A stretch of DNA of 64,000 bases from an uncultured virus (IMG/VR IMGVR_UViG_3300035495_000309) (IMGVR_UViG_3300035495_000309); one strand, 5' to 3'. Counted from the stretch's first letter, positions 5,123-46,891 are shown. Translations and numbers: made by a program. The notes: generated by a model not told the origin, from the letters alone.

Positions 5123-6468
5123 ATGGATAATAGATCACAGCTGCATGCGAGTATTCGCAAGCGCATGGTCGAACTACGAACGTCGAAATTACCAATTAAA
5201 ATGGACTTGACGACGCTTGATATGACCATTCAGTTTTTATACAAAGAAGGAGCTTTGAAAACAAGAAAAGCTCTGACGAATATAGACAAACTGTTCAAGT
5301 CACTAGATAAGTCCGTATATAAGGAAAGTGAAATTGAACTGACCAACCGTATTTGGCTAATCGAAAAGACTATTGAAGGATATTTACGCGAGGGGTTGGT
5401 CCAAGAAGATGTTATTAAGACATACTGTAAAGAAGATCCAGATTGTGATGATTACAGAGCAAGTATTCTGGATCAAGTAACGACAAATAAACGCCAGATC
5501 AATTATGAAGAATCGAAATACTTATTAAAACAAATCGATGATCGATTGGCGTTTGGATATACGATCACCTTAAAACATATTATCGAAGAATTGTTTTCTC
5601 TTATGGATGAATCTGATGTAAAGAGTTACAAACAGCTCAGTGAGGATTTGTATCAGATCGCAAATTCTATCATCAATATTAAGAGAAGATCCAATTCTTT
5701 GGGAGCAGATCAAACTTTTTCTTTACAAGAAGAAGTCTTTGAGACTGTGTTATTCGATTCTATGGAGAAATTAAACAACCGGAATCGAATCTTTATTACG
5801 GGTATTCGGCATCTGAATACCTTTTTAGCCCCTGGGTACATGAGTAAACGTCTTTATACATACTTAGCATTCCCAGGTGGTGGTAAATCTCAAATTTTGT
5901 TGGACACTGCACTTGATATAAGAAAATACAATGCAGGGGTTCAATGTAAGAATCCAGAGAATCGACCAGCAGTTCTTATGATTACAATGGAGAATAGTAT
6001 TGAAGAGACGATTGAGCGAATCTTTAATATTGTGGCAAGTGATGATGACATAAGAAACTACTCTCCAAAGCAAGTAAAGAAGATGCTGATTAAGCAAGGT
6101 GGATTAACGCTTACTGATAAAAGTAATATTGATATCATCATTAAGTATTATCCAAATAGAAGCATTGATACAAATGACTTATATGGAATCATCCAGGATT
6201 TGGAAGATGAAGGAGTAGAAGTCATTGCGTTAATTCTGGATTATTTAAAGAGAATACGTCCAGCAGAAAAGGGAGAAAATGAAAAAGCTGAGCTTAAGAA
6301 TATCACAAATGAATTGAAGGATTTAGCAATATATTGGGATATTCCAGTAATTACAGCTCAGCAGTTAAATAGAACTGCTTCATCTATTGTAGATGCAGCA
6401 ATTCAAGCAAAGAAATCAGACGTCACGAAGCTCGTCGGACGAGATGGCGTCGCTGGTGCCTGGGAGAT
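5123..6468 (+). CDS. dnaB: DnaB-like replicative helicase, exon 1 (join 5123..6468,7642..8020; 574 aa)
   Basis: Walker A AFPGGGKS, ITMEN, LILDYL, PVITAQQLNR; splicing restores GAWEI-IENSD in frame. Confidence 0.9.
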
Positions 6469-7641
6469 TAACTCAATGGTCTCCCCATACCGTGAGGTGT
6501 GTAAAAATAACCACTTTAATTGCGGGGACTTTCCATTTCACCAATGGACACATTTTATGTGCCGGCTACGCTTCAACTACCAACTTATATCTGGCGACAG
6601 GATAAGGGCAAAGGGTAACTCCGGAGATATGGTAATCAAGGTTGAAGATACGGACAATCCGCAGCCAAGTCAGAATTAAAATTTTAAGTAACGATTTGAT
6701 AGTTTAAATAGAAAGGAGATTTTTATATGGAAAAAATTATGTGGAAAACTTTAAATGGATTTAAAAATATAATAAGTAACACCTATCAAGTTTCATCACT
6801 CGGTGATGTTAGGATAAAGAAAGGTAAGAAGTTATTACATAAAAAGATTGCAAATAAGAAGCATCACCCATATTATGCAGTTTATCTCAAGAATAAAGAT
6901 GATAAAGGTGAATGGGTTTTAGTTCATCAATTAGTAGCTTTTTGTTTTATCAAAATTCCTAAAAAATATGAAGGAAGAACTGACTTAGTACCAGATCATC
7001 TCAATAATAATGGATTAGATAATTATTATAAGAATTTAAGTTGGAAAACCCGCGGCGAAAATGTATCAAAAGCATTTAAATGTAAAGAAATAAATACATT
7101 TGGTGAAAATTGTTGTTGGGCAATTATAACGGATGATCAAGCTAGAGAAATTTGCAAGTATCTTGAGGAAAACCTTTCTTATGATGAAATATTAAAAAGA
7201 ATGAAAATGGAGGATAATAAATCAAATCGTACGTTATTAGTTCGAATCAAAAACAGGATTGCCTGGAAAGAGATATCAAAAGATTATAATTTTAGTAGCA
7301 ATACCAAGTATACTAAAACACAATTGGAAACGATAAGAAATATTCCTAGAATCAGAAGATTAATCTCTGAGGGCAAAAAGAACACTGAAATTGCACATAT
7401 AATTTGGCCTGAGATTCCACATGAGAAAATCGGACCAAAAGCGCAAACGGTAAGTAAAATTCGAAAAGGGCTAATATTCAAAGATATTCTGAACGGTTCA
7501 ACGACTATCGAAAGCATAATCTCTGGAGAAATCCTTAGATGAAGAAGCGAGTAGAGTAGGGAAACCGAAATGAGTGGCTCTTTATATCTGATAAAAGGGT
7601 ATAAAGATGAAGATATAGTCTACATATAAAATTTATATATG
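6469..7641 (+). mobile_element. Group I intron in dnaB (1173 nt) carrying an HNH endonuclease
   Basis: P1 gggagaT/Gtctccc with U-G wobble; P10 tcaatg pairs the 3' exon start cattga; core motifs ttgcgggga, aatccgcagc, ttcaacgacta, aagatatagtct; terminal G at 7641. Confidence 0.92.
6727..7542 (+). CDS. Intron-encoded HNH homing endonuclease (NUMOD4-like N-terminus, HNH, C-terminal helical repeats)
   Basis: YQVSSLGDVR, VHQLVA..F, PDHLNNNGLDNYYKNLSW; own SD gaaaggag. Confidence 0.88.
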   Translation: MEKIMWKTLNGFKNIISNTYQVSSLGDVRIKKGKKLLHKKIANKKHHPYYAVYLKNKDDKGEWVLVHQLVAFCFIKIPKKYEGRTDLVPDHLNNNGLDNYYKNLSWKTRGENVSKAFKCKEINTFGENCCWAIITDDQAREICKYLEENLSYDEILKRMKMEDNKSNRTLLVRIKNRIAWKEISKDYNFSSNTKYTKTQLETIRNIPRIRRLISEGKKNTEIAHIIWPEIPHEKIGPKAQTVSKIRKGLIFKDILNGSTTIESIISGEILR

Positions 7642-8020
7642 CATTGAAAATAGCGATGTCGTTATTATCATAAATCGAGAAAAGAAATTAGGTTCTGATG
7701 AAGTCTACATGACGTTTAAACTATTGAAAAGACGATATCGTTCCGCTGATACAGATGATAAGTTGCGTGAACTTGAGTATTTCAATCATCCGTATGCAAA
7801 AGGTAGCTCTATCAAGCTTATCAATGATGTGGAACTGGAAGAATCTATTTCTCTTACAAGCTTAGCTTCTGAATTTGTAGCAGCCGACAATAAGGGAAAT
7901 AAGCATAATAAGAATGGTATTAACAAAGAAAAGATTGAAGATGACGATGATGAAGAAGATGGTCTTGATATATCATTTGAACCATTTGATATGAATCGTC
8001 AAGTATATGCAAAAATGTAA
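7642..8020 (+). CDS. dnaB: DnaB-like helicase, exon 2
   Basis: IENSDVVIIINREK...MTFKLLKRRY; in frame with ORF 7709..8020. Confidence 0.88.
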
Positions 8021-21215: not shown

Positions 21216-21311
21216 ATAAAAACTCTCCTTTCCATATTAAAAACTTGTCAAACCTATGATGAAATGCCATTTATTTTCGAAGACTTAATTTTAAAGAAAG
21301 GAAGTGATACT

Positions 21312-21711
21312 ATGGATAATACAAGTACTCCGAAAAATCGGATTATCTGTATTAAAGGACGATATTACGATACTGGTACCAAGAATAAATCCTTCTTGCA
21401 AGTTGCACTGGACTTAAAAACTCTTGGTGTAAAAGAATGGTATTTTATGCTTGAGATCAAAGATCCGTATCTTGTCAATGTAGATCCTTTCAAGACGAAG
21501 AAAGATTCAGATGAACCTGATCTGACAAAAGATCAGATTTCAAGAATCACGATAGAGTGCGTACATAATATCTGGTACTATTTAAGGGAAGTTGTAAGGA
21601 TACCATCTGCTGGTTCTCCAGAAGGCGTTCCTTATATAGCAAACCGTGGAAATATAGCACAAACTTGGTGCTTGTTACACGGACTAGATAGTTGGCTCTG
21701 TTTACCTCGGC
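21312..21711 (+). CDS. terL: Terminase large subunit, exon 1 (join 21312..21711,22033..22479,23646..24988; 729 aa)
   Basis: N.WYYLREVVRIP; splicing restores Walker A LPR-QQGKT. Confidence 0.88.
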
Positions 21712-22032
21712 GAACCTTGTTGCCGCGAAATCCAGCAATGGATTGGAAAAACCTCTTTAACTGCGGGAACGTCTTGTTATGTCTTAACTACCAACCAAGA
21801 GTGGTGACATTCTTGGGGCAAAGGGTAACTCCGGAGATATGGTAATCAAGGTTAAGAATAGAGAAAATCCGCAAGCAAGTATCCTAAGAAATTAAGACGA
21901 AGCTTCAACGACTAGGGAAAGGCAAGTAGAAATACTTGAACCGAGTAGGCTCAATCATAGGGCGAAATGTAGGTGAAATAATCCGAAATGGGAGGCTCCG
22001 AGAAATCGGATGATGATATAGTCTAAGTTATG
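21712..22032 (+). mobile_element. Group I intron terL-I1 (321 nt, ORF-less)
   Basis: P1 cggC/Gccg; P10 accttgtt pairs the 3' exon aacaaggt; P2 aatcca-gcaa-tggatt; core ctgcggga, aatccgca, ttcaacgacta, gatatagtct; terminal G at 22032. Confidence 0.88.
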
Positions 22033-22479
22033 AACAAGGTAAAACAAAGTCAGCACTAGCAGCACAAACATGGGCATATTCATTTGGAACATCTAAGTCA
22101 ACATTCATCTTCATCAATAAAGATGGTGATAATGCAAAGACAAATCTTAGAGATTTCGGTGATATCATATCGTGCTTACCAGTATATTTACGTTACGAAT
22201 CCATTATGGAAGAAGATGGAAAAATTACCAAATCAAAGAAGAGTGCAACACGATATCAGCATCCTGTTACAGGAAATGAAATCGTTGTTCGCGCAAAAGC
22301 TATTTCATATGAAGCAGCACTCGGCATGGGTCGTGGTTTGACTGCACCAATTCTTCATTTTGATGAGGTGGAGTTTACACCATATATCGATGTCATTATT
22401 GAAAACTCTGTATCTACGTTTGAAACTGCATCACGTAAATCAGCGGAGGTCGGAGCAATCTACGGGCGAATACTCACGT
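22033..22479 (+). CDS. terL: Terminase large subunit, exon 2
   Basis: QGKTKSALAA...GRGLTAPILHFDEVEF (Walker B)...GRILT. Confidence 0.9.
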
Positions 22480-23645
22480 TAAATGCGGCGTGATTACAGG
22501 GTGACCTGTAATACAAACCCCTCTAACTGCGGGGACTTTCTAAAAATCTTTAACTACCAACCAAGAGTGGTAACATTCTTGGGGCAAAGGGTAACTCCGG
22601 AGATATGGTAATCAAGGTTAAAGATAGATCGATCCGCAGCTAATCACCCATTTGTGTGAATAATTATCACCACAACTTTTATCTAACGGAGGTGATTATT
22701 CACATGAATAAACTTTTAGAAGAATTTTATAAATTTAAAGAACATGATGATGAAGAATTTAGATTTTTGAAATACCCTGGAATTGTAAAGTATCAATACG
22801 TAATATCTAATTACGGAAAAGTATTCTCTTTTTCAAGAGTAAAAGAATTGAAATTTCATTATGATAAGGATGGATATAAACGAATTGGGATCATTCGACA
22901 TATTGATGGAAAGAGATTAAAATCTCCTGTTGCAGTTCATCGGATGGTCGCAAGTACATTTCTTCCTGAGCATGATGATGAATTGAATGTGGTGAATCAT
23001 ATGGACGGAGATAAAACGAATAATTATTATAAGAATTTAGAGTGGACTACAAGTGGAGAAAATACAAGACATGCATTACGAATGGGACTTCAAGTAAATT
23101 CTGGTGTGAATGCACCAAATGCAGTGTATAATGAAGAAGTAGTTAGATTCATTTGCAAATCCCTTGAATCTGGAATGGACTGTTTTCAAACTTATTGTGC
23201 ATTAACTGGAGAAACAAAGGTTACAAATAACGCTATATATGCATTAGTATTCTCCATAAAATCCGGTAAACGTCATAAAGAAATCAGTTCTGAGTATGAT
23301 ATACCAAATTCTGTTTTATCTCAAACAAAGAAAAGATTCACGAAAGAAGAAGAGGATAAAATAAAAGAAATGATACTTTCAGGTTGTAAAACCACTACTA
23401 TTGTAAAATATTTTGGTGGTAAAACGACAAAAGACAAAATAGGGAAAAGGGTTAGTGATAAAGTGCGAAATCTTCGAAAAGCATTGGGTGTAAGTTCAAC
23501 GACTAGGGAAAGGCAAGCAGAAAGTGCTTGAACCGAGTAGGTCCAATCATAGGACGAAATGTAGGTGAGATAATATCAAGAAACCGAAACGGGGGGCTCT
23601 CTATTTTAGAGATGAAGATATAGTCTAAATAGTTTCATACTATTG
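22480..23645 (+). mobile_element. Group I intron terL-I2 (1166 nt) carrying an HNH endonuclease
   Basis: P1 tcacgT/Gcgtga with U-G wobble; full core motifs; terminal G at 23645; splicing restores ILT-STPGD. Confidence 0.9.
22704..23531 (+). CDS. Intron-encoded HNH homing endonuclease
   Basis: YVISNYGKV, VHRMVASTF, VNHMDGDKTNNYYKNLEW; SD ggaggtg before ATG 22704. Confidence 0.9.
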   Translation: MNKLLEEFYKFKEHDDEEFRFLKYPGIVKYQYVISNYGKVFSFSRVKELKFHYDKDGYKRIGIIRHIDGKRLKSPVAVHRMVASTFLPEHDDELNVVNHMDGDKTNNYYKNLEWTTSGENTRHALRMGLQVNSGVNAPNAVYNEEVVRFICKSLESGMDCFQTYCALTGETKVTNNAIYALVFSIKSGKRHKEISSEYDIPNSVLSQTKKRFTKEEEDKIKEMILSGCKTTTIVKYFGGKTTKDKIGKRVSDKVRNLRKALGVSSTTRERQAESA

Positions 23646-24988
23646 CAACGCCTGGAGACATCGACACTGATGCAGGTGCAAGGGCAGAACAGCTTCTTGC
23701 AAAATGTGCAGTGTGGAACGATTTATTTTATAATAAATCTATAGATGAGTTAAGGGAATTATCTGTTAAAGATAATAAGATGGGAGTATTTTATATGGAA
23801 TACTCTTATCAACAAATTGGATTATCCCTTGAATGGTTTAGAAATATTGCCAATAAAATCAATAATAAATTGGTTGTTCGCCGCGAGATCTTATTACAAA
23901 GACTTCGCGGTTCTTCTAATTCTCCCTATGATCGTGATGATATGGATCGAATCATTGAGCTTGAAAAGAAGCCGATTGAGACGATCATGATCTGTAAATA
24001 CTATCGTCTTAATATCTACGAAAAACTTGTCCGAGGCATCCCTTACATTGTCGGCATTGACTGTTCTACAGGAACCGGTGGTGATAATAATGCGATGTCT
24101 ATCATAAATCCTTATACAACAAAATTAGTTGCGGAATTCGAATGCTCTTATGTTGGTGAGCCTGAATTCATCAGGTGTATTGTAGAGCTTGTAAAGAAGC
24201 ATATACCAAGAGCAATCCTTTGTATCGAGCGTAACTCTGTTGGTGATTCTGTTATTGCATTCCTGATGGAATCTGATATTGCTGGTAGAGTATACTTTGA
24301 TAAGTTTAAAAAACTTGCAGAAGAGAAAATGGATGATTTAAATACAGTAGAATCTGTATTAAAGAAGAAAGCAAAAGAGAAATCTAATTATGGTGTTTAT
24401 ACCGATGTGAGATCTCGTGAAGTCATGTTTAGTATCTTGGCTGATCGTATTAAGACTCATAAAGAGGATTTCGTTGGGCATAATGTCACAAGAGATATTA
24501 CAAAGCTCGTTATGAAAGGAACAAAGATCCAAGCAGCTGTAGGATTCCATGATGACAGTATCATGTCATATCTCATTGGCATGTATGTTTATTATTATGG
24601 AAATAACTTAGAAGTATTTGGATTCTCAAAAGAAGATATATTGTATCAGCAGGAAGAACGAAATACTGGAATGCTTCGACCAGAAGAGATCGATTATTCA
24701 GCATTGCCAGAGTCTGTTATTGATACAGTGCGATTAGAGGTTGAACGACAAAGTAAACCTTCCTATGAAGACATTTACCGAGAAACTCTCATGAGAGAGC
24801 AAGAAAAGACAAGAGCCTTACATAAGAAAGGCTTAATTGATAATGCCGGTTTGGATAATACTCTGGAACCAGATAAAGATGCATTCTTTGATTTTGGTTC
24901 ACAAAACATGGATGCATTTGATGAATTAAATGGATATGATCCAGGGGTTGTATCTGGAAATAACGGAGATGTCTTTGGTGTATTTTGA
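23646..24988 (+). CDS. terL: Terminase large subunit, exon 3 (nuclease domain)
   Basis: YIVGIDCSTG.GGD, LCIERNSVG, HDDSIMS RNase H-fold motifs. Confidence 0.9.
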
Positions 24989-42720: not shown

Positions 42721-43628
42721 TTAATTATCAAGATCATCACGACGAATCTTATATCCTTCAAACATCGCTTTTCGTTGTTTCTGATAAGCTGGTTTGTCGG
42801 ACTTTAACTTGTTAAAGATCTCGATATCTCGTTCGATGTCTCCAAATGTAAGTCTTACTAAACTACGCTTCTCCGGATTTAATGTAGTATCCCAAAGCTG
42901 ATCTGCATCGGCCTCTCCTAATCCTTTGAAACGTGTCATAATCTTTGGTGTAAGTCTTGATGTTCTGTCTAAGAACTCCATAATGGTAAGCTTCTGCTCT
43001 TCCGCATCTTTCTCTTTACTGAAGACTTCATAACCATATTTCTGTACAACTGGTACAAGGTCATTGATCTTATTAACAAATCTCTGATTGATGTGGAGAC
43101 GAACAACGCCACCATTTACAACACCTTTGATTACATTCTTCTCCAGATTTACTTCTGGATATTTCTTCTGTACAAACTTCATGAAATCACGAACAAATCC
43201 AGACTCACTTAACTTCTTCTCAATGAGAAGATGACTTGTTGTATTCGTTCCAGGAACTACCATCTTCTTTTCGGTAATACCACCAAAGATAACGAGTCCT
43301 GCAATCACAACTTCAATGAGTCCACGATCAATCTTATAGAAATCATAAAGCTCTTTAATTGTGGAAAGATAGTCAATTGTGTCATAAAGGAACTGCCACA
43401 AATCTGACTTATTCATATAATCAGACTTCGGGTAATTAAGGCGTACCTTATAGAACTTGACAATCTTCTTCATACAGATTTCCGCAAGCTCCATTCTATT
43501 ACCAATAAACGGATGCTCAGTATCTGCAATTCTGTAAAGAGGAGGGTATACCTTATACAGGAATCCCTGCTCGACTATTTCTGGCATATACCGAACATGA
43601 AATCCGGCAATACCAACTCCAATACCAT
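42721..43628 (-). CDS. gyrB: DNA gyrase subunit B, exon 3
   Basis: (Y)GIGVGIAGFHVRYMPEIV...PPLY...RFKGLGE...LWDTTLNP. Confidence 0.9.
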
Positions 43629-44076
43629 CACTTGTGTTAATCTTAATATCTCTATTAAGGTCAGACTATATCTTCATTTACTATATCCTGTTACCAGATA
43701 TAATAAAGCTTGCTGTTTCGGTTTGTTTCAACCTACCTTTCGCCTGCTATCTTAGGCCTACTCGCTTCGTGTAAGTATTTCAACTTACCTTATTTTCAAA
43801 CCAGCTACAAATGTATTTAGAGATTTCTCTCATCCTGGTTGTCTAGCTTTCCCTAGTCGTTGAAGTCATATCTCATCATTGTGAGATGTTTCCTTGCGTC
43901 GATTATCTGTATCTTCAACCTTGATTACCATATCTCCGGAGTTACCCTTTGCCCTTGGACTGTCACCATTCCAAGTTGGTAGTTGAAGCTTAACCAGCAC
44001 ATCTTAGATGCGTTTACCTGTCACGGTAAAATTTCCCCGCAGTTAAGCAAGTTTTAGACGAACTATGGTCTCCAGA
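43629..44076 (-). mobile_element. Group I intron gyrB-I2 (448 nt, ORF-less)
   Basis: P1 gacggaT/Gttcgtc; P10 accat/atggt; full core; P9 cttaata-gaga-tattaag; splicing restores DADIDG-YGIG...RYMP. Confidence 0.9.
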
Positions 44077-45332
44077 ATCCGTCGATATCCGCGTCAGTGG
44101 ATATAATTATCTTGTTATAATACAGACGTCGGATATCAAATGACTGCCCAATTCCAGTATGAAGAACTCTGACGTATTGCTTCCACTCTCCATTCTCCAT
44201 AATCTCTGGAAGTGATTTCTTAAAAGCATTTGCAGTAACTCCACGGAAACCAAAGATTGCCTGAGTAGCTGCATCTCTACCATTAACCATGGAACCTGCA
44301 GCTGACTTTCGTCCCTCAATGAGGAACAACTCTTTGTACTTGTTTCCGGTGTTGTTGCACTTGATAAAGTTCGCTAACTCGTACTCTGCAAACGTATCTA
44401 CTTTCTTCGATACATTTACTGACTTTGCTTTCTGTAACTCTATTCTTGCTTTTGCATTTGCTTTTACTACTTTAATGATTGCCTGTAATCTTGCCTGATC
44501 ATTTGCAAAGAAGTCTGTTAATGCTTTCGATGTCATATCTTTAAGAACTGGTCGTAAGTTCTCATTCTGGATACGATTCTTTGCATTACCCATGAATTGT
44601 ACCTGGGCATTTGTAGACAGATTTACTACAAGCTTTAATCCAGCTTTTACATCCTGGAATAAGATGGGTGTCTTTGCTCTTTGTGCTTCTGATAAGGAAT
44701 CTCTTGTTTGCTGCTGGAAATACCGGCAGATGACTTCCTCTACAGATTCAACATGAACACCACCATCATCAGTTTGTGTGAAGTTACAAAAAGACCTTTC
44801 GTCTACTTCCATTCCCTCATCATAAGCGAATGCAAATGAAAGACTTACCTGCTTTTTCATCTTTTCTTTCTTCGTCTTGACTTTTCCATTGTCATCAACG
44901 ATGTTTCGTTTAATCTCCTCTACGATATTCTCTTTCGCAGATAAAGAGATTGGTTGTACAATGAGATCCTTTGGATTTTGGATATAAGAGAAAATCATAT
45001 CCGAAAAATCTTTTCTCTTAATGGTTTCCTTCTTAATAATCTTAAGACCTTCCCATTCCTCCAAATGGAACTCAATATTGTAATCAAGCTGGTAACTCAT
45101 AAGAGTAACCCACTCTCTTACTTTGTCAAAAGGAAGATGACTTCCAGCACCAAGATATATAGGATTCGAAATGAATGATACGATGGTACCATGTTTCTTT
45201 CCTTTCTTAGTTGGGATTCCTTTGGTATCTCCTACCTTCTGACCATCTTTAAACTCAATCTTATGATAGTAATCACCACGATAAGTTTCAAGTGAGAAAT
45301 AGCTACTAAGTGCGTTTGTAACAGTGATGCCG
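44077..45332 (-). CDS. gyrB: DNA gyrase subunit B, exon 2
   Basis: GITVTNALS, GGVH, ELFLIEGRKSAAG, TDADIDG. Confidence 0.92.
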
Positions 45333-46523
45333 CTCCTATTTCTAGGATAGACTATATCATCAATTATATATCCTATTACCAGATATATCATTGCCTCCCG
45401 TTTGGGCATATTTCAGCCTACATTTCGCTCTATTATTGAGCCTACTTGCTTCGTGTAGATATTTCAATCTACCTTATTTTCAACCAGCCTACAAATTGTA
45501 TTTAGAGATTTCTCTCAATGCTGATATCTAGCTTTCCCTAGTCGTTGAACACAACAGAAATAATTATCAGCGATTTACAGATTGCATGGATTTATGATTT
45601 ATATTTTTCATATCAATCACCTTTCCTTTAGAACTTATATTCTTTACTGATGCTTACCCAAGTTTTTCTTTGTTTGATAGAGTAAATTATCGTCATAGAT
45701 ATCCCTAGCTTTTTCGAAATTTCTTTAGCTGTTTTCCCTTTCTCCAACAACTTACAAATTTTCTTTACCTCCTTTACAGAGACTTTAGCCATAGGATTTT
45801 CTTCACCTATCAACGCTCTTGTATCATTATCTCTTGGAAAATAGTACTCCTTAGAAACACTCTTCCAAATCGTACCATTTTTAATTTTAGAGATATATGA
45901 TTGATTGACTTGCATCTTCTTTGATATTTTTCCAACTCGAACTTCATTTTGAAGCATTTCACAAATCTCACGTACAATCTTCTCATCTTTCAGGTTTCCT
46001 TTCCTCAAATGAGTCCTATACGCATGATGTGTATTTTCTGCTGATGTTGACCAAGTCAGATTATGAATGTCTGGATTATCCTTATTTCCATCTTCATGAT
46101 TTACTTCAGGATAATTATTAGGATTTGGAATAAATGCCTCGGCAACGAGTCTATGGACTTTCCTTGTATATTTCTTTCCATTAAAAGTAAGAGATACAAT
46201 CCTGTATCCATTTTTATCCAAACCACCAGCCATCTTCTTTCCAGTTTCTGCAATAAATACATAACCGGGAGATGCAATCTTGTATTTAGTTTTACATCCG
46301 TTAATATAAATCCATGCTTCTTTGTAATCTAATACTATACTCATAATTTTTCTGTCTTCGTTGCGTCGATTGATCCAACTTCAACCTTGATTACCATATC
46401 TCCGGAGTTACCCTTTGCCCCAAGAATGTCACCACTCTCGGTTGGTAGTTGAAGCTTACGGATTCGTCCCCGCAATTAGAGAGGTTTTGGCATATGCTTT
46501 TCAGCATAAGGGTGCCTGTGTTA
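45333..46523 (-). mobile_element. Group I intron gyrB-I1 (1191 nt) carrying an HNH endonuclease
   Basis: P1 ggtgT/Gcacc; full core; P9 tccta-gaaa-tagga then terminal G; splicing restores SGEFGV-GITVTNALS. Confidence 0.9.
45628..46344 (-). CDS. Intron-encoded HNH homing endonuclease
   Basis: VHRLVAEAFIPNP...VNHEDGNKDNPDIHNLTW; two C-terminal HTH-like repeats. Confidence 0.9.
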   Translation of the reverse strand: MSIVLDYKEAWIYINGCKTKYKIASPGYVFIAETGKKMAGGLDKNGYRIVSLTFNGKKYTRKVHRLVAEAFIPNPNNYPEVNHEDGNKDNPDIHNLTWSTSAENTHHAYRTHLRKGNLKDEKIVREICEMLQNEVRVGKISKKMQVNQSYISKIKNGTIWKSVSKEYYFPRDNDTRALIGEENPMAKVSVKEVKKICKLLEKGKTAKEISKKLGISMTIIYSIKQRKTWVSISKEYKF

Positions 46524-46891
46524 ACACCGAACTCACCACTGCTTGCACCACCCTGATCACGGAAGAATTTACTTCCAGATTGCAGTTTGGTACATACTAT
46601 ATCGATCGGATAATCCTCTTCTGGGATTCCACGACCGTTATCTTCAATCGTTACTTTATCAGCCAGCCTGTCATAGCTGATATTAATTAAGAATTTCTTA
46701 TCTTCTCCAATAGACTTTAAGTATTCCCAGCATTTCGGATCAATGCCTTCATCAATGGCATTTTGTGCTCCCTCTTTGAATAAGTGGAAAACACCCAAAT
46801 CTCCGAATTTCTGTAGATATAAATTCGTCTTTGTTTGTATCTTTTTCATGTCATCTTCGATATACATGACACGAACGTCTTTATTCGACAT
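46524..46891 (-). CDS. gyrB: DNA gyrase subunit B, exon 1 (spliced product 843 aa)
   Basis: E..QNAIDE, DNGRGIP, SGSKF (GHKL ATPase); AACA-N6-TG at 46924-46935. Confidence 0.92.

Follow-up and report, generated by a model that had tools for sequence, protein, structure and literature searches.

The terL gene in the window (the whole stretch of DNA analysed, 64,000 nt from the uncultured virus IMGVR_UViG_3300035495_000309) is a jumbo-phage gene in which the Walker A motif is split by an intron, intron 1, that lacks two features near-universal among group I introns. Intron 1 spans positions 21712-22032 on the plus strand, is 321 nt long and contains no ORF. Judged from the sequence, it genuinely belongs to the group I introns by homology, although its 5' splice site carries a C-G pair in place of the U-G wobble and no P9 hairpin follows P7'. 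The explanation that we consider fairly probable as a whole is that intron 1 is a genuine IA intron, that its C-G pair is imposed by coding, that its P9 has been deleted, and that it still splices with P10 standing in for P9.

The translation of exon 1 matches the annotated large terminases of jumbo phages when compared by tblastn, namely those of Listeria phage LPJP1, Staphylococcus phages S6 and SA1, Bacillus phage BpSp and phiKZ-like phages. A megablast search of the terL region against phage records gives no match. Rfam at gathering thresholds gives no hits over the window. In the E-value mode, RF00028 is detected in the window at 21702-22038 (+) and 43642-44118 (-, 41.3 bits). Intron 1 covers the whole model (1-253) with 47.5 bits (E = 1.7e-9), which is just below the gathering score of 50, and this shortfall coincides with the P9 segment of the model, which is absent from intron 1. 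The core helices P3-P8, J6/7, J8/7 and the P3/P7 arrangement are present in the Rfam alignment, with high posterior probability over P3, P4, P6, P7, P8 and J8/7. A 75-nt insertion relative to the Rfam consensus lies between P7 and P3', and contains helices of the P7.1/P7.2 type, including a 6-bp GAAA hairpin. Such an insertion is typical of subgroup IA introns. The structure of P4-P6 is taken from an unconstrained fold, the P3/P7 pseudoknot not being representable by nested dot-bracket constraints. In this fold a GUGA loop (21804-21807) caps a 9-bp hairpin of the P5 extension. The P4 region (21762-21873) is approximately 88% identical to those of two other introns in the window (siblings B and C), and P4-P6 shows 72.6% identity over 169 nt (query 59-227) to the polA intron of Staphylococcus phage K, which carries I-KsaIII. 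The 3' core motif and the P7.1/P7.2-type insertion likewise agree with the siblings in the window and with the group I consensus of Rfam. Thus, intron 1 is predicted to be a genuine phage IA-type group I intron, its subgroup being read from P7.1/P7.2 and the likeness to phage K. The coordinates are summarised in Table 1.

Table 1. Features of terL, its introns and the sibling introns, in window coordinates
Feature	Position	Strand	Remarks
terL exon 1	21264..21711	+	start uncertain: ATG 21264 or internal ATG 21312; ends C21711
P1 5' strand	21708..21713	+	exon 21708-21711 and intron 21712-21713
Internal guide sequence	21714..21725	+	21714-21721 for P10, 21722-21725 for P1
P2 hairpin	21729..21744	+	6 bp, GCAA (GNRA) loop; GUAA in L012
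P3 5' strand	21752..21756	+	partner 21991-21995; Rfam alignment
P4	21762..21873	+	21762-21767 with 21868-21873; encloses P5 and large P5 extension
P6/P6a	21874..21904	+	GAAA loop
P7 5' strand	21910..21914	+	partner 22019-22023
P7.1 and P7.2 region	21915..21989	+	P7.1 at 21923-21938, GAAA loop
P3 3' strand and P8	21991..22010	+	P3' 21991-21995; P8 21997-22010, GAAA loop
J8/7 and P7 3' strand	22011..22023	+	J8/7 22011-22018; P7' 22019-22023
3' tail	22024..22032	+	9 nt lacking a P9 hairpin; last base G22032 (omega G)
terL exon 2	22033..22479	+	starts AA CAA GGT AAA ACA (remainder of Walker A), ends U22479
terL intron 2 (sibling B)	22480..23645	+	U-G splice pair, 6-bp P9, ORF 22656-23531 (HNH_3 and NUMOD4)
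terL exon 3	23646..24988	+	junction restores ILT-S-TPGD
Sibling C	46523-45333		in gyrB-like gene
Sibling D	44076-43629		in gyrB-like gene, no ORF
Sibling E	6469-7641		in DnaB-like helicase gene

Exon 1 aligns to the uninterrupted TerL proteins of BpSp and SA1 as far as LPR, and exon 2 aligns from (Q/N)GKT. The gap between the aligned exons is exactly one residue in the homologues, and this residue is Q in BpSp (LPRQNGKT) and in SA1 and LPJP1 (LPRQHYKT). An intron-less metagenomic allele, L013, reads P-R-Q-Q-G-K-T. Excision of intron 1 in silico restores the frame and gives LPRQQGKT, as in intron-less alleles like L013. The join C21711|A22033 is a phase 1 join that forms a single codon, C|AA (Gln), and it alone has a G (G22032) before the 3' site. 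A terminal G is present in all 14 distinct introns known to us at this site. We infer that the junction is C21711|A22033, as fixed by the uninterrupted homologues; the join that the initial annotation had chosen for restoring Walker A is thereby upheld, both by the spacing of the homologues and by the preceding G that no other join has. Alternative 5' sites (after U21707, G21709, G21710, G21712 and A21714) and alternative terminal G residues (22027, 22038 and 22039) were inspected by hand and rejected, each of them giving no preceding G, a broken frame or the wrong homologue spacing.

Relatives of terL are available as two sets of loci. The first set (n = 30) contains 11 loci with an insertion at the exact position of intron 1, 16 uninterrupted loci and 3 loci that could not be judged. 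The second set (n = 18) contains 4 loci with the insertion (one of them a duplicate), 11 uninterrupted loci and 3 unclear ones. The distinct same-site introns number 14, including that of the window, and are grouped by guide sequence and length (198-1292 nt) into about six lineages; the rows of this comparison are not independent, near-identical records sharing lineages. The identity of TerL exon 2 among the hosts of the same-site introns ranges from 34 to 100%. The same-site intron of L017 contains a weak NUMOD4/HNH-like ORF. These phages are very intron-dense, as in one relative, L031, four RF00028 matches (61.6-91.1 bits) are located within 5.3 kb around terL (L031:140-4656). Among named phages, an intron at the Walker A site of terL is found neither in the staphylococcal jumbo phages Madawaska, where the gene is split later, and S6, where it is uninterrupted, nor in Listeria phage LPJP1, where it is uninterrupted at this site.

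P1 is formed by 21708-21711 and 21722-21725, which make four Watson-Crick pairs, all of them G/C, and it ends with C21711-G21722. The intron-initial segment between C21711 and GCCG (21722-21725) is 10 nt long, and P1 can be extended into intron 1 by G21712.U21721 and A21713-U21720. The C-G splice pair described in the initial annotation is thus seen in the window, and it recurs in 14/14 same-site introns (11/11 and 3/3 further ones) from about six diverged lineages. The U-G wobble has natural exceptions on record. We treat it as near-universal and not as defining, because intron 1 is clearly homologous to canonical introns.

C21711 opens the conserved Gln codon of Walker A (LPRQ-xGKT). All 26 distinct intron-less alleles have CAA or CAG here (16/16 loci, and 11/11 further loci of which one is a duplicate contig). 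The C at position -1 is imposed by the protein, because U at this position would give a stop codon, TAA or TAG. A C-to-U revertant, which had been proposed for comparison with the wild type, would therefore be a nonsense mutant (TAA/TAG) in vivo, and is meaningful only in vitro or in a non-coding reporter. The four siblings in the window have their U at position -1 within codons for Ser, Val, Tyr and Ile, all of which permit it. When 11 same-site introns are compared, position -2 of P1 is G-C in nine and A-T in two, and position -4 is C-G in six and A-T in five. The compensatory changes in the guide track the synonymous changes of the upstream Arg codon, which is CGG, AGG or CGA. P10 also co-varies, with A-T, G.T or G-C at position +2 and C-G or A-T at position +3. 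The covariation of P1 and P10 indicates that the register is fixed, that the ribozymes track their own exons and that C-G is long-standing. C-G is, on this comparison, probably an old and tolerated state that is ancestral to the whole same-site family. For the C-G half, its retention in every same-site intron across about six lineages speaks for the possibility, raised in the initial annotation, that the intron simply tolerates the change.

The first base of the intron is G, paired with a U of the guide (21712/21721 in the window), in 11/11 same-site introns (the window and L012-L038), and the four U-G siblings, unlike these, begin with U. The invariant G.U at position +1 may reflect ancestry, or may be connected with the C-G splice pair.

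Nine nucleotides remain after P7' (22019-22023), eight of which precede the terminal G22032. No structure is predicted for this 9-nt tail (MFE 0.0). A substitute partner for the tail is not found inside intron 1, where the best duplex has an energy of -4.3 kcal/mol, as compared with a mean of -4.9 (sd 1.4) for shuffled tails; 63% of 500 shuffled tails pair as well as or better than the real one. Weak, too, is a hairpin formed by the tail together with exon 2, which spans 57 nt and has an energy of -3.3 kcal/mol. A candidate 2-bp P9.0 (22024-25 with 22029-30) is broken in L012, the tail of which differs at 22027 and 22029 and likewise forms no hairpin. These results bear out the statement that intron 1 has essentially no P9. 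P9 is present in 11 of the 14 same-site introns as a helix of 6-7 bp (MFE -7.1 to -10.7 kcal/mol), which is followed by a tail of 9-14 nt. Its loop is GNRA (GAGA, GAAA or GUGA) in 10 of these 11 introns, and the 5-nt GAAAG in L035. The same-site introns without P9 are only those of the window lineage (the window and L012) and the 198-nt mini-intron of L054. When the window is aligned with L031 and L038, the difference looks like a clean excision of the P9 hairpin. The six P9-bearing same-site introns scanned with Rfam score 52.5-91.1 bits, and the introns of the window and L012 score 47.5 and 44.9 bits respectively. The loss of P9 therefore appears, from these alignments, recent and specific to the window lineage, and the C-G pair and the P9 loss would have different histories.

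P10 is formed by 21714-21721 and 22033-22040, which are exact reverse complements, so that the 8-bp P10 of the initial annotation is recovered in full (8/8 Watson-Crick pairs). The 12-nt guide (21714-21725) as a whole is perfectly complementary to the ligated exons (12/12 Watson-Crick pairs, -20.3 kcal/mol). The window and L012 have a contiguous P10 of 8 bp, as compared with 3-5 bp in the other 12 same-site introns. This difference suggests that the long P10 compensates for the missing P9, a suggestion that derives from one lineage. A counterpoint is L054, which also has no stable P9, but has a P10 of only 5 bp.

The mini-intron of L054 (L054:2301-2498) is a 198-nt same-site intron with a C-G splice pair, a 5-bp P10 and a 15-nt A/U tail (MFE 0.0). 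By eye it seems to have neither P7.1 nor P7.2, and it is a candidate for a minimal natural group I intron. When the window and L012 are compared, C21736, the second base of the GNRA loop of L2, is replaced by U in L012, and G22027 in the tail is replaced by A. These two changes could represent C-G to U-A covariation of a contact between the loop and the tail, or a coincidence, a single pair being concerned.

A blastn comparison of intron 1 with the window detects four siblings, B, C, D and E. In all four, the 5' exon ends in U and a hairpin is located between P7' and the terminal G, P1 of sibling C being assigned by eye. The P9 loops of siblings C and D are GAAA and GAGA respectively. The hairpins of siblings B and E are weaker and non-GNRA (-3.4 and -1.7 kcal/mol respectively), and P9 of sibling E is an A/U hairpin with the terminal G in its closing pair. 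The contrast drawn earlier with four siblings that have U-G and P9 therefore stands, though two of the hairpins are weak. Intron 1 differs from these phage K-type siblings, some of which contain ORFs for HNH endonucleases, in both the splice pair and P9.

The gyrB-like gene that is split by siblings C and D is located at 42721-46891 (-), with exons at 46891-46524, 45332-44077 and 43628-42721 and with Pfam matches to HATPase_c, DNA_gyraseB and DNA_gyraseB_C. The ORF of sibling C (46344-45628) matches HNH_3/NUMOD4/HTH. The DnaB-like helicase gene (5123-7720, +; divDNAB/DnaB_C) is interrupted by sibling E, the ORF of which (6727-7542) has only weak HNH_3/NUMOD4 matches below the Pfam cut-offs. 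The frame of the 5' exon reads on for 44 codons in sibling C and for 70 codons in sibling E. The frame of exon 1 also reads on for 44 codons into intron 1 (21712-21845) before the first stop, and stops after 1-15 codons in the other same-site introns examined. In most group I introns an in-frame stop follows straight after the 5' junction, as stated in the available part of a review (PMC3073962). The 44-codon frame in intron 1 could allow ribosomes to disturb its folding.

The window derives from an uncultured jumbo phage, and its terL region is identical in L011, which is located on a 257,734-bp viral contig. The region containing C21711 and the short tail is 100% identical in the record G001 and in L011. 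Intron 1 of L012 is 98% identical to that of the window and keeps both C and the short tail. The initial annotation had allowed for an assembly error at C21711 or in the tail; the agreement of these records, together with the C present in 14/14 same-site introns, argues against such an error. Exons 1 and 2 of the window and L012 differ at 26 nucleotides, of which 24 are in exon 2 and are all synonymous, yet the encoded proteins are 100% identical. The identity of the exon 2 protein despite these 24 differences indicates that TerL is under selection. The window and L012 differ at 2/448 positions (0.4%) in exon 1, 6/321 (1.9%) in intron 1, 24/447 (5.4%) in exon 2 and 66/1341 (4.9%) in exon 3. 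This mosaic divergence around intron 1 suggests recent recombination or co-conversion. The six differences in the intron comprise two changes from GNRA to GNRA, one from G-C to G-U and one that replaces an unpaired base in P6 by a potentially pairing U, the remaining two being in the tail; thus four of the six keep the structure. Purifying selection on the intron was considered from the low divergence of L012 and dropped, because it is confounded by mosaicism, exon 1 diverging by only 0.4%. In L012, terL intron 2 (L012:5675-6005) has no ORF and is approximately 330 nt long, as compared with 1166 nt including the HNH ORF in the window. Intron 2 thus appears to be polymorphic for the presence or absence of an endonuclease between the window and this relative, the TerL of which is 99% identical.

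The following course of events would account for intron 1. The last base of the exon is kept as C for the Gln codon, so that the guide would form C-G in place of the U-G wobble. The guides would follow the synonymous changes of the Arg codon, and the C-G pair would have been selected for tolerance. The P9 hairpin, which is capped by GNRA in most relatives, would have been deleted in the window lineage. Splicing would still occur at C21711|A22033, with the 5' site set by the short all-G/C P1 and the 3' site set by binding of the terminal G and by the unusually long 8-bp P10, which would take the place of P9/P9.0. The intron probably splices more slowly or less accurately than the canonical siblings do, and the perfect 12-bp duplex between the guide and the product could slow the release of the ligated exons. 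Pyle et al. (1994) reportedly found weaker binding and lower reactivity and fidelity in the Tetrahymena ribozyme when G-C takes the place of G.U. According to the accessible part of PMC10020454, the U-G wobble specifies the 5' site, is critical and is read by J4/5, P9.0 aids recognition of the 3' site, and the wobble and a P10 mispair are suggested to help unzipping normally. According to PMC11417360, loss of one of P9.0 and P10 is tolerated, but loss of the two at once is not. From this redundancy of P9.0 and P10 and the role of the wobble, choice of the 5' site by P1 and choice of the 3' site by the terminal G and P10 would be expected. At the same time, because the U-G wobble is described as critical and P9 as essential in published work, reduced activity or need for a cofactor is plausible.

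A bolder form of this explanation, which we put forward tentatively as possible and somewhat short of probable, is that intron 1 is a natural ribozyme in which Watson-Crick pairing of the guide alone sets both splice sites, with a 12-nt guide and without U-G, P9 or a stable P9.0, and that it self-splices free of protein. The invariant G(+1).U beside the splice site might help the core to accommodate C-G. Because intron 1 has no endonuclease gene, it is also conceivable that its perfect 12-nt guide promotes reverse splicing into terL RNA that lacks the intron.

It is unlikely, though to be weighed, that the C-G pair and the missing P9 leave intron 1 catalytically disabled, so that it cannot splice unless aided by a helper, on which the supply of TerL would then depend; this is the possibility of help in trans and of throttled packaging that the initial annotation raised. 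This helper could be an RNA chaperone of the phage or host or a maturase-like protein, maybe an HNH/NUMOD4 intron protein, and the window does contain intron ORFs with HNH_3 and NUMOD4 matches. Dependence on a helper would agree with the accessible text of PMC3873408, in which P9 is called essential and a P9-less mitochondrial intron is proposed to need accessory factors, with the critical role of U-G in 5' site choice given in the part of PMC10020454 at hand, and with the exon-1 frame, which meets no early in-frame stop. However, no candidate helper was found and intron 1 itself contains no ORF, and the presence of C-G in all 14 same-site introns, whose hosts range so widely in TerL exon-2 identity, speaks against a lineage-specific factor for C-G.

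That the P9-less copy is a decaying intron of a defective or dying lineage, or an artefact of assembly, so that TerL is not made from this gene, is very improbable. In its favour, all the records are metagenomic and the Rfam score is under the gathering score; but the P9-less intron is found in four separate records (the window, G001 and L011, which are identical, and L012, at 98%), all three exons of terL are open, and the protein of exons 1 and 2 is unchanged in L012 despite its 26 nucleotide differences, indicating selection at the protein level. Location of the true splice sites elsewhere, for example at a U-G site at U21707 or at another terminal G, is improbable in the extreme. U21707 is only 4 nt upstream of the assigned site. 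However, the homologues demand exactly LPR-Q-(Q/N/H)xKT, the registers of P1 and P10 co-vary across the lineages, and the other joins, when checked by hand, lack G before the 3' site, shift the frame into a stop or destroy GKT. Retention of splicing at C21711|A22033 by a genuine IA intron is the reading that we adopt.

Natural C.G group I introns, group I introns in terL and a model of an intron without P9 are each already known. Two natural C.G group I introns of mitochondria were described, and selection at the protein level was asked about, by Hur and Waring (1995, Nucleic Acids Res 23:4466), as far as can be told from its entry in the reference list of PMC6468297. Intron 1 resembles these introns, so far as that entry describes them, in having C.G for U.G, and the protein-level selection raised there is the explanation given here, by way of the Gln codon. 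It differs from them, within the same bounds, in being located in a phage gene, in the conservation of C-G over about six lineages and in the loss of P9 in one of these lineages. The host gene of the introns described in 1995 is reportedly fungal mitochondrial cox1. Selection of the 3' site by P9.0 and P10 was reportedly established by Michel et al. (1990) and Burke et al. (1990) with the T4 sunY core and the Tetrahymena intron. As in sunY and Tetrahymena, the 3' site of intron 1 would be determined by binding of the terminal G and by short pairings; unlike the engineered truncations and mutants used in that work, the loss in intron 1 is natural.

Gut jumbo ('Jug') phages have intron-rich essential genes, including terL with group I introns, and their splicing is confirmed by metatranscriptome reads (PMC12880540, accessible part). 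These phages belong to a different clade with genomes of 360-402 kb, and the same part of that paper makes no mention of a C-G splice pair or of P9 loss. The trans-spliced rnl intron of Prasinoderma mitochondria is modelled without P9, which is called 'very unusual' by the authors in the accessible part of PMC3873408. Unlike this intron, which, on that account, is trans-spliced and organellar and for which a missing third piece is possible, intron 1 is contiguous and has same-site homologues that bear P9. A paper that joins a C-G pair, P9 loss and a phage terL intron was not found in a search that most subscription papers lie outside. Both the U-G wobble and P9 are regarded as fixed in group I introns. 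In one database, U at -1 is a condition of entry, and 16,427 candidates were rejected for lacking it (PMC11835236).

Real introns are lost when annotation filters demand U at -1 or the Rfam gathering score, and terL of the window would then be mis-called as fragments. If the bolder form of the explanation is true, databases that demand U at -1 would systematically leave out such introns, and the same-site family would be a conserved, coding-enforced class of C-G group I introns. The same-site introns show that the demands of protein coding can take precedence over a ribozyme 'rule'. They provide a natural series at one site of an essential gene, from C-G with P9, through a 198-nt mini-intron without a stable P9, to an intron with no P9 and a lengthened P10. 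This series allows the contribution of each element to be measured, including how P10 can replace P9/P9.0.
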